This document shows, piece after piece, positions 40,549 through 41,967 of a stretch of 64,000 bases of DNA (positions are counted from its first letter, which is position 1; each line of letters opens with the position of its first letter). Position numbers and translations under genes: made by a program. The stretch lies in the NCBI RefSeq assembly GCF_050320075.1, contig NZ_CP190018.1; one strand, given 5' to 3'. The DNA is from Escherichia coli (lineage in GTDB: Bacteria > Pseudomonadota > Gammaproteobacteria > Enterobacterales > Enterobacteriaceae). A model generated the notes under the pieces. It had not been told where the DNA came from. It saw only the letters and a program-made list of their open reading frames with translations, and did no database searches.

Positions 40549-40920
40549 ATGGCTATTATTAATATGAGCGATCTGTTTCCAGTTCGCAAATCATTTACCG
40601 ATATCGTTTCATATGCAACTGATGAGTTCGGTTGTGTGCAATCTTTTACCGTTGATCTGGCGGTTGATGTTGAATGCGGCGATCTGATTACCAGTGACGG
40701 CGCTGAATATGTAAGCGGCGGCGATGTTCTTGTAGTTGTGTCTGATGCGGTATCCGCTGGCGACGCTAAAACCGTTAACGTGCTGCGTAGCAATGCCGGA
40801 CTGGTTTGCATCAAGTCCGATGCTCTGAATGTTGAAGGCGCTGTGAAAGAAGCTGCTATTGCTGCCCTGGCTGCAAAAGGTTTCCAGATGGCTGGTTTTA
40901 ACACTGTATTCACATCTTAA
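40549..40920 (+). CDS. head decoration protein-like (gpD-like), tentative
   Basis: 123 aa, Ala/Val/Gly-rich; sits directly before the capsid-like gene as gpD precedes gpE in lambda. Confidence 0.35.
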   Translation: MAIINMSDLFPVRKSFTDIVSYATDEFGCVQSFTVDLAVDVECGDLITSDGAEYVSGGDVLVVVSDAVSAGDAKTVNVLRSNAGLVCIKSDALNVEGAVKEAAIAALAAKGFQMAGFNTVFTS

Positions 40921-40938
40921 TATAAAGGAATAAAAATA

Positions 40939-41967
40939 ATGATTATTGGTAATGAATCCGTCGATCTGGCTCCGCTGTTTAGTCTGCACGACTCTCGCAA
41001 CTTCCTGTTAACTTCTCTCGACTTTACTGATCCGGTAGGTGTGAGTTCTCATAAAGTGGCTGTTAGCCAACTGGTGGAAACTAACGAATCTCTGTTCAAC
41101 AAAGAAACCTCTCGTTTCTCTTCTGAACATAACGTGACTAAACGTGAACAGGGTAAAGAATTTTTAGTAGAGATCCCCTACTTCCTGCGTGAAGATATGA
41201 TTAAGCCGCAAGACGTGCAAGGCAAACGTAAACCAGGCGCTACCGTTGAAGAAACTCTGACAGATATCTACGCGGAATATGTTGCTAAGCACCACATTGC
41301 TTTCCAGCGTACTAAAGAAAGCGTGCTGGCTGCTTCCCTGTTCTCTGGTCGCACTTACACCCCTAAAACTGATGATGTGCTGATCCAGTGGGGCGATCTG
41401 TTTAGTGTTGTTCCGATGACTGCAACCATCGACGCATCAAGCACCACGCCTTCTATGGTGTTCCAGCAATTCGATCAGATGCATACAGACGTTATTACTA
41501 AAGCACAAAGCCAGGCGGCTGCTGTAGAACGTATCGTTGTATTCTGTAAACCTGCTGCTTTCAACGCTATCCGTTACAGTGCTGGCATGGTTAACGCGTT
41601 CCAGTATGCAAGCCCTACCGATGACGCAAACATCGTTTATAGCGTGCGCTCCCTGCTGCCAGGTGTGACTACCTTCACTATTCCTGGGACTAACATCGAT
41701 ATCGTTAAAGTTACTGATCCGCTGCTGCTGGCTCATATGACTTCTGATGCGGTTGCTGTTCCGAAGTTCGCTAAAGGCTCTAACGTCTATCAGAACATTT
41801 TCAGCGCTCCTTCTTCAACGTTCGACCTGCTGAATTCTGGCGCGGCTGAATATTACAGCTATGCGTTTAGCCCAGCACGTAACGACGCTGTAAACGTAGT
41901 TACTGAGAATAGCCAGATGGTTGTAAACCACGGCGTAGGCTTCACTGTACAGATCACAGTAGCGTAA
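40939..41967 (+). CDS. major capsid protein-like (lambda gpE-like family), tentative
   Basis: 342 aa, size and position match a D/E head gene pair; family not verified. Confidence 0.4.
   Translation: MIIGNESVDLAPLFSLHDSRNFLLTSLDFTDPVGVSSHKVAVSQLVETNESLFNKETSRFSSEHNVTKREQGKEFLVEIPYFLREDMIKPQDVQGKRKPGATVEETLTDIYAEYVAKHHIAFQRTKESVLAASLFSGRTYTPKTDDVLIQWGDLFSVVPMTATIDASSTTPSMVFQQFDQMHTDVITKAQSQAAAVERIVVFCKPAAFNAIRYSAGMVNAFQYASPTDDANIVYSVRSLLPGVTTFTIPGTNIDIVKVTDPLLLAHMTSDAVAVPKFAKGSNVYQNIFSAPSSTFDLLNSGAAEYYSYAFSPARNDAVNVVTENSQMVVNHGVGFTVQITVA

Follow-up and report, generated by a model that had tools for sequence, protein, structure and literature searches.

A capsid- and tape measure-encoding integrative element at the tRNA-Gly gene glyU of Escherichia coli, a putative satellite of virulent phi92/phAPEC8-group myoviruses

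Why would an Escherichia coli chromosome maintain what look like the head decoration and major capsid genes of a tailed phage when the rest of the head is missing? The question is raised by a 64,000-nt stretch of E. coli chromosome (contig NZ_CP190018.1; hereafter, the window), which is 100% identical to strain YZLc1-3 throughout the compared region. On its plus strand, an open reading frame (ORF) of 123 amino acids (aa; 40549..40920) lies immediately upstream of one of 342 aa (40939..41967), and RefSeq/PGAP calls the same two ORFs in YZLc1-3. A first-pass annotation, which had placed the two ORFs correctly and likened them to gpD and gpE of phage lambda, regarded the pair as isolated and offered two explanations, namely, a decayed prophage remnant or a capsid-forming satellite that obtains the remaining components from a helper phage. 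The pair proved not to be isolated but to belong to a 13.5-kb mobile island that also carries genes for an integrase, a replication initiator-like protein and a tail tape measure protein (TMP). Judging from gene content and sequence relationships, we consider this island to be probably a phage satellite that exploits Stephanstirmvirinae, the large virulent myoviruses of the phi92/phAPEC8 group, and to represent a new family of satellites that encode their own capsid.

The 342-aa protein aligns end to end with the Pfam family Phage_cap_E (PF03864; residues 25-340 on model positions 20-328/329, E = 3.9e-11) and is also matched by PHROG 29 (phrog_29, major head protein; E = 2.8e-11), by the solved capsid protein of Pakpunavirus P7-1 (9zbi_A; E = 7.9e-11) and, over its full length, by that of phi92, gp124 (21uy_N; E = 1.5e-7). 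Its closest phage relatives are the capsid proteins of Phapecoctavirus, Justusliebigvirus and Pakpunavirus, lytic myoviruses of about 150 kb, as exemplified by the end-to-end alignment with the major head protein of ESCO5 (24% identity, E = 7e-13). The AlphaFold model is of moderate quality (pLDDT 65), with the N-arm and the E-loop poorly modelled; all its neighbours in structure searches are nevertheless HK97-fold capsid or encapsulin proteins, the best being that of PhiTE (1.5e-9, TM about 0.55), followed by the ICP1 coat protein (8g1r) and the capsid proteins of Bas63, Sf14, YSD1, Chi and lambda (gpE). On the evidence of these profiles and the model, the protein is a full-length major capsid protein (MCP) of the Phage_cap_E/HK97-fold type, for which assembly into a shell is predicted.

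The 123-aa protein yielded no match in Pfam, PHROG or NCBIfam, and a tblastn search against all phages returned nothing even at an E-value of 10. Identification as a decoration protein by sequence was attempted against the decoration proteins of ESCO5 and muut by BLAST and by shallow profile-profile comparison (hhalign), both with negative results; profiles of PDB entries gave weak matches to 9ncf_J and 9c2d_J (E = 0.2-0.3), and a C-terminal ...FTS motif common to the protein and to phage decoration proteins in a MAFFT alignment is suggestive only. A profile built from four island homologues recruited 25 relatives among 1.8 billion representative proteins, and with these added to the alignment, AlphaFold2 produced a model with a pLDDT of 87 and a pTM of 0.78. 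The top 18 Foldseek matches of this model are all capsid decoration proteins, including those of Bas63 (9ncf_J, 4.7e-4), PhiTE and Sf14, the SHP of P21 and gpD of lambda, and they decorate the very capsids to which the MCP is most similar. It is thus by its predicted fold, and not by sequence, that the identification as a gpD-type head decoration protein is supported. The gene order is the same as in ESCO5, where the decoration gene also immediately precedes the MCP gene. Structure prediction, which had been suggested as a check in the first-pass annotation, therefore upholds the gpD/gpE-like assignment of both genes, the capsid protein by sequence as well as fold and the decoration protein by fold only. 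Both genes are under purifying selection, with dN/dS values between the window and a related element integrated at thrW of 0.13 for the MCP and 0.16 for the decoration gene, synonymous sites being near saturation in this comparison.

The limits of the element become apparent from comparison with the corresponding locus of E. coli O26:H11. Housekeeping genes extend in the window up to glyU, the gene for tRNA-Gly(CCC), at 12857-12928, and the capsid-carrying element, a tRNA-Gly glyU integrative element, occupies positions from about 32061 to 45442. When aligned with the O26:H11 locus, its left end is marked by attL (32061..32078, plus strand), an 18-bp copy of the tRNA-Gly 3' end (TTCCCTTCGCCCGCTCCA); in O26:H11 the element sits immediately after glyU, whereas in the window another island (12929-32060) intervenes. 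The right end is truncated by an IS1 copy (45443..46210, plus strand), followed by the remnant of the ETT2 type III secretion system (ygeH, yqeH-K) and then by core genes. An intact copy is found in the O26:H11 strain FWSEC0001, where 13,492 bp are enclosed between 22-bp direct repeats of the glyU 3' end, directly after glyU and with a 406-aa integrase gene at the distal end; every gene that it has in common with the window element encodes a protein 99-100% identical. In the window, IS1 has replaced attR and the first 20 integrase codons. PGAP still calls a 391-aa tyrosine integrase there (44280..45442, minus strand; phrog_1, E = 4e-37; its relatives are of the DUF6538 plus Phage_integrase type), using a TTG start within the IS1 end, and the sequence from residue 6 to residue 391 matches the intact O26 protein (residues 21-406) with 100% identity. 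Because attR and the integrase N-terminus were removed by IS1, the window copy is probably immobile, stuck in place through this damage with its other genes intact.

Downstream of the capsid genes, the element encodes a 613-aa TMP homologue of the Stephanstirmvirinae type (42331..44172, plus strand), so that a late-type block can be recognized in which a gene for a 71-aa helix-turn-helix (HTH)-like protein (HTH71), the decoration gene, the MCP gene, a gene for a 63-aa HTH-like protein (HTH63) and the TMP gene follow one another, with the integrase gene next on the opposite strand. The first-pass annotation, which had seen no packaging or tail module, was accurate with respect to terminase and portal and overlooked the TMP gene: no portal, terminase, sheath, tube or baseplate genes were found in the 64-kb window, and the element itself is devoid of portal, scaffold, protease, terminase, sheath, tube, baseplate and fibre genes. 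The TMP provides the most extensive link to a particular group of phages. It matches phrog_16051 (E = 2.1e-64), the TMP of ESCO5 (gp244) over the full length (27% identity, E = 1e-58) and gp134 of phi92, known from the virion structure (PDB 21vq; E = 1.3e-46), and its nearest relatives, at 27-40% identity, come from the Phapecoctavirus/Justusliebigvirus group, which infects Escherichia and Klebsiella. In many relatives of the element, although not in the window, the TMP gene is followed by a tube-initiator gene whose product is 57-73% identical to that of the phage gene located 3' of the TMP gene (phi92 gp135), which is in turn homologous to the PhiTE tube initiator. The structural module of ESCO5 runs from scaffold through decoration (132 aa) and MCP (333 aa), further genes and TMP (662 aa) to a 233-aa protein, and the islands correspond to two sub-blocks of it.

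The link is not confined to virion proteins. The element encodes a 221-aa winged helix-turn-helix (wHTH) protein (37032..37697, plus strand) that resembles replication initiators, with matches to phrog_270 and O-like initiator families (E = 6.8e-6 to 4e-3) and to Pfam HTH_36 (2.3e-4). Over residues 30-143 (window positions 37119-37460), it shares 75% identity with the second of two wHTH domains in gp154 of the Justusliebigvirus muut (31258-32256 in the coordinates of the muut locus), a protein that also has a nuclease-like domain and itself scores as a replication initiator. At the nucleotide level, the gene is 91% identical to Justusliebigvirus DNA over 261 bp, which implies recent recombination between island and phage; such an event would be most easily explained if the two had replicated in one cell. 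Phages of the phi92/phAPEC8 type are virulent and lack an integrase, and no integrase gene was found in the annotations of the group members that we examined. Since these phages are virulent and integrase-free, the island is not a Stephanstirmvirinae prophage.

The element belongs to a family of considerable breadth. Its MCP type occurs in 333 of the 5426 complete E. coli genomes (about 6%), Shiga toxin-producing O26:H11 strains among them, and full-length MCP homologues (342-348 aa, 40-97% identity) were found in Escherichia, Klebsiella, Citrobacter, Enterobacter, Cronobacter, Dryocola and Serratia. Relatives with intact attachment sites include the E. coli thrW variant (13,631 bp, including IS600), a Klebsiella pneumoniae element (13,939 bp) and a Citrobacter freundii element at another tRNA gene (14,279 bp), each flanked by an intact tRNA-derived direct repeat; across E. 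coli, Klebsiella and Citrobacter, the integrated elements range from 12.4 to 14.3 kb. We considered whether the thrW relative might be Sp1/CP-933H of O157 Sakai, and this was ruled out because Sp1 is an unrelated lambda-like remnant. The common gene order comprises a small recombinase, a non-coding stretch, small ORFs including the initiator-like gene and a gap, and continues with HTH-like, decoration, MCP, HTH-like and TMP genes, an optional tube-initiator gene and the integrase gene. Within this frame, integrases and att sites vary, and the replication module is interchangeable, being represented by the wHTH gene, by DUF6945 with HTH_36 or by a DEAD-like helicase. The capsid module, too, has evidently been swapped as a cassette: a variant that occupies the glyU att site in E. 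coli ES5 shares the integrase type with the window element, is nearly identical to it at the left end and has kept the small genes around the decoration/MCP pair, whereas the pair itself (14286-15715 in the coordinates of that locus) is only about 19% identical to that of the window, and its MCP has no detectable similarity to those of ESCO5 or muut. Between variants, the TMPs have diverged further (25-31% identity) than the MCPs (53-79%), which suggests matching to different helpers or an arms race. The common order, the intact att sites and the dN/dS values of 0.13-0.16 together point to a functioning modular mobile element rather than to random decay.

Counterparts that do not integrate appear to exist as well. 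When plasmids were searched with the MCP by tblastn, four replicons emerged, NZ_CP020521.1 (1-13689), CP134895.1, NZ_CP035869.1 and CP148565.1, which are independent, circular and non-mobilisable E. coli molecules of 13.2-13.7 kb with a set of genes analogous to that of the islands. The first of these encodes a 111-aa decoration-like protein, a Phage_cap_E MCP, a tube initiator, a neck (tail-completion) protein, a 706-aa TMP and a wHTH initiator-like protein, and has neither integrase nor att site; its MCP is nearer to the island MCPs than to those of phages (24% identity to the MCP of the window), and its TMP is closest to the TMPs of rV5-like Vequintavirinae, not of Stephanstirmvirinae. From their gene content, these replicons look like the episomal counterpart of the island family. 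The recurrence of this kit of genes at the same size in episomal form argues for a set of genes that works together and for a genome held to about 13-14 kb. By contrast, the 12-13-kb metagenome contigs that we considered as candidates for circular excised forms were rejected, their contexts being chromosomal.

By general definition, a phage satellite is a mobile element that has integration or replication functions of its own but an incomplete set of virion genes. The element conforms to this in its att repeats, its integrase and its initiator-like gene, and in that its structural genes are limited to those for MCP, decoration protein and TMP. The following life cycle can be proposed. Infection by the helper would induce excision and replication of the element, whose initiator-like protein has a DNA-binding domain in common with a helper protein. 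The MCP and decoration protein of the element would assemble on the portal and packaging machinery of the helper into small heads for about 13-14 kb of DNA, which would then be joined to helper-built tails incorporating the TMP of the element and, where present, its tube initiator. The resulting particles would transfer the island, probably at the expense of the helper. More tentatively, and as a proposal that we hold with less than even confidence, the islands and the circular replicons could form one superfamily of satellites of about 13-14 kb, tRNA-integrated as well as plasmid-like, that parasitize Stephanstirmvirinae and rV5-like Vequintavirinae through the virion parts that determine size: a small head would be dictated by the capsid and decoration proteins of the satellite, the tail would be seeded by its TMP and tube initiator, and the helper would supply the rest, yielding chimeric particles.

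Several observations weigh against a satellite of Stephanstirmvirinae. The MCP is no more than 24-26% identical to that of any sequenced phage (all at most 26% in a collection of 50,697 records) and is as near to that of the Pseudomonas-infecting Pakpunavirus as to that of phi92, so that its fit with a Stephanstirmvirinae portal and scaffold is a matter of inference; the profile matches behind the assignment of the 221-aa protein as an initiator are weak (E = 1e-4 to 1e-6); and a satellite has no obvious need for a TMP of its own. Neither a small terminase nor a pac site, a repressor or an activator of the AlpA type was recognized in the element, which makes induction and packaging specificity hard to account for, and a search of its non-coding regions for helper-like DNA (origin, pac, late-promoter motifs) yielded nothing beyond k-mers expected by chance and sigma-70-like TTGACA promoters of a generic kind. 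Virome contigs that might have testified to packaging were sought in IMG/VR, where 12 of 12 matches were prophage-style calls from isolate genomes. The distance of the capsid also lends some plausibility to a different helper, temperate or virulent, that has yet to be sequenced and has a closer capsid, in which case the likeness of the tail genes would reflect older shared ancestry and the element would be a satellite or mini-virus of that phage. The decoration protein without a single tblastn match fits such a helper, as does the ES5 MCP, which at 19% identity at the same att site shows that the capsid module is not bound to one phage lineage. We nonetheless regard it as unlikely, given that the TMP, the tube initiator (up to 73% aa identity) and the wHTH gene (91% nucleotide identity) independently indicate one and the same subfamily, whose host range (Escherichia, Klebsiella) overlaps that of the island family.

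Alternatively, the element might be an anti-phage island that is never packaged, its divergent capsid, decoration, TMP and tube-initiator copies co-assembling with and poisoning the virions of Stephanstirmvirinae while the island spreads by another route. The retained genes do encode components of homo-oligomeric assemblies and could act as dominant negatives, the faster divergence of the TMPs than of the MCPs is what an arms race predicts, and there are documented cases of mobile elements that interfere with assembly (Tai systems, PMC11364771; capsid remodelling by PLE and SaPI). Yet PADLOC recognized no defence model among the element proteins, apart from a negligible ZorA-like match, the replication module and the att/int functions are conserved, and the narrow range of 12.4-14.3 kb, together with the circular relatives of 13.2-13.7 kb, suggests a constraint imposed by capsid capacity; we therefore find this explanation quite improbable as a substitute for transfer, whereas interference and satellite transfer are compatible and not mutually exclusive. 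The other explanation put forward in the first-pass annotation, a decayed prophage whose head and tape measure genes were spared by chance, could draw on the IS1 damage to attR and the integrase N-terminus in the window copy and on the lack of an assigned function for most of the small ORFs. It is very hard to reconcile with the same compact, att-bounded architecture, with intact sites, in at least three genera (Escherichia, Klebsiella and Citrobacter), with the purifying selection on the capsid genes, with the absence from the window element of any remains of portal, terminase or sheath genes, whether as pseudogenes or as fragments, and with the virulent, integrase-free nature of the related phages, and we give it almost no weight. 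The satellite proposed in the first-pass annotation thus fares better, being supported by the anatomy of the element and by comparison with its relatives, although not in the form of a cfPICI, from which the element differs by having a TMP and no portal, protease, terminase or connector genes.

The remaining genes of the element fall into three groups. At the left end (32525..34340) lie accessory genes, namely, a PGAP-called 85-aa hypothetical gene (32525-32782, plus strand), a cargo gene for a YecR-family lipoprotein (32816-33136, minus strand; PGAP) and another for a 183-aa serine recombinase or DNA invertase (33789-34340, minus strand; phrog_125, E = 6e-62), whose place is taken in other variants by a tyrosine recombinase of 192-205 aa. 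The invertase is also weakly similar (29% over 118 aa, E = 2e-6) to the product of muut_69, a hypothetical gene at about 43028-43690 of the phage muut record. Around the initiator-like gene are small genes, of which the first encodes a 60-aa protein (36702..36884, plus strand) that surpasses all other small proteins of the family in conservation (62-83% identity across the E. coli variants and Klebsiella), and the others form a cluster of ORFs of 85, 68, 126, 73, 102 and 69 aa (37710..39452, plus strand); the 126-aa product is conserved throughout the family, and an acidic helical protein of roughly 105 aa has a positional counterpart in every variant. Finally, HTH71 (40331..40546, plus strand), directly 5' of the decoration gene, has a positional homologue in every variant (35% identity to that of ES5), and HTH63 (42121..42312, plus strand), between the MCP and TMP genes, is likewise conserved in every variant (43% identity to that of ES5). 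As a suggestion only, these two proteins flanking the capsid genes are candidates for a role in regulation or packaging specificity.

Two non-coding regions stand out. An ORF-free, AT-rich stretch of 2.36 kb with tandem repeats (34347..36701) contains tandem units of 59/60 bp that each include a palindrome (35258-35371), 23 bp that are exactly duplicated (35552-35597) and recurring GTGCAATAAC-type motifs together with sigma-70-like promoters, and could be an origin or have a regulatory function. Unannotated segments of this stretch are conserved in 713 of the 5426 E. coli genomes and are, thus, more common than the MCP. An invertible switch in this region, adjacent to the invertase gene, was considered and rejected, since the examined strains differ solely in tandem-repeat copy number and show no inversion. 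The structural genes, in turn, are preceded by an untranslated leader of 880 nt (39453..40330, plus strand) with a strong sigma-70-like promoter (TTGACT-17-TAGAAT, 39472-39500) that is conserved across genera and, downstream of it, two terminator-like hairpins (39719-39740 and 40251-40283); the promoter and some further blocks of the leader are kept in the Citrobacter and Klebsiella variants. This arrangement suggests control by antitermination, recalling a pR'/tR'-type switch, or a non-coding RNA, and Rfam produced no match across the whole element, leader included.

The island that separates glyU from the capsid-carrying element in the window (12929-32060, about 19 kb) lies right after glyU, in tandem with the element. 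It carries genes of the PICI/P4 type, encoding an integrase, an HTH regulator, AntA/AntB and BRO-N proteins, an Icd-like protein, a DUF927 primase-helicase, a single-stranded DNA-binding protein, ProQ/FinO and PerC, as well as four genes in the same direction (843, 686, 925 and 104 aa) that match no PADLOC or NCBIfam model and could represent uncharacterised defence cargo.

Should the proposed satellite lifestyle be correct, a parasite of a group of phages that are widely isolated for therapy would reside in about 6% of complete E. coli genomes, as well as in many strains of Klebsiella, Citrobacter and Enterobacter, with the possible consequences that phage yield drops and that chromosomal DNA moves between strains. 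The element would also be the first reported type of satellite with both a capsid protein and a TMP, and E. coli would join the short list of hosts, so far those of PLE and PICMI, with satellites of strictly virulent phages. The narrow size of 13-14 kb of both integrated and circular forms predicts small heads, roughly T=3 or T=4. We found no description of this family in the literature, although many subscription papers lay outside our search and a prior description is possible.

Among the known satellites, cfPICIs are similar in that they are islands of about 10-15 kb which integrate in Enterobacteria, encode an HK97-fold capsid of their own and borrow tails and other components from a helper. 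They differ in carrying portal, protease, connector and terminase subunit genes, AlpA and a primase-replicase and in exploiting temperate helpers, whereas the head genes of the element are restricted to MCP and decoration, a TMP (and, in relatives, a tube initiator) is added and the link is to virulent myoviruses; portal, protease, connectors and terminase, which accompany the MCP in cfPICIs, were found neither in the element nor in its relatives. PLE of Vibrio cholerae is also a chromosomal island, with its own initiator and small capsids, and depends on a virulent myovirus, ICP1, the coat protein of which (8g1r) is a structural neighbour of the MCP described here from its gene. However, PLE has no capsid gene, reshapes the helper coat by means of the scaffold TcaP and uses a large serine recombinase, and none of its proteins is homologous to those of the element. 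P4-like satellites and PICMIs are likewise small and tRNA-integrated or chromosomal, P4 forming T=4 heads for a genome of 11.6 kb and PICMIs using virulent helpers, but neither has a capsid or tape measure gene: P4 acts through Sid and Psu on gpN of the helper, and PICMIs are packaged as concatemers into helper-sized heads. Searches of all ORFs of the element against PHROG, NCBIfam and Pfam detected none of the hallmarks of PICI, P4, PLE or PICMI (alpA plus pri-rep, terS, ppi, psu, sid, delta, alpha, repA, tcaP, the PLE serine integrase, fis).

The Streptomyces satellites MiniFlayer and MulchMansion (PMC10690885) offer a parallel in having their own encapsidation genes while other essential functions are missing; their hosts and genes are unrelated, no pairing with a tape measure gene is reported for them, and MiniFlayer lacks an integrase and attaches to the neck of its helper. 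The decoration/MCP pairs of lambda (gpD/gpE), phi92, Bas63, Sf14 and PhiTE resemble that of the element in order, folds and sizes (about 110-130 and 330-345 aa), whereas identity is 9-26% and the phage pairs are embedded in a full morphogenetic module. Departing from the defining features of cfPICI, PLE, PICMI and P4-like satellites alike, the element would, by analogy, work most like a cfPICI, with its own capsid and a borrowed tail, and resemble PLE and PICMI through its putative virulent helper.

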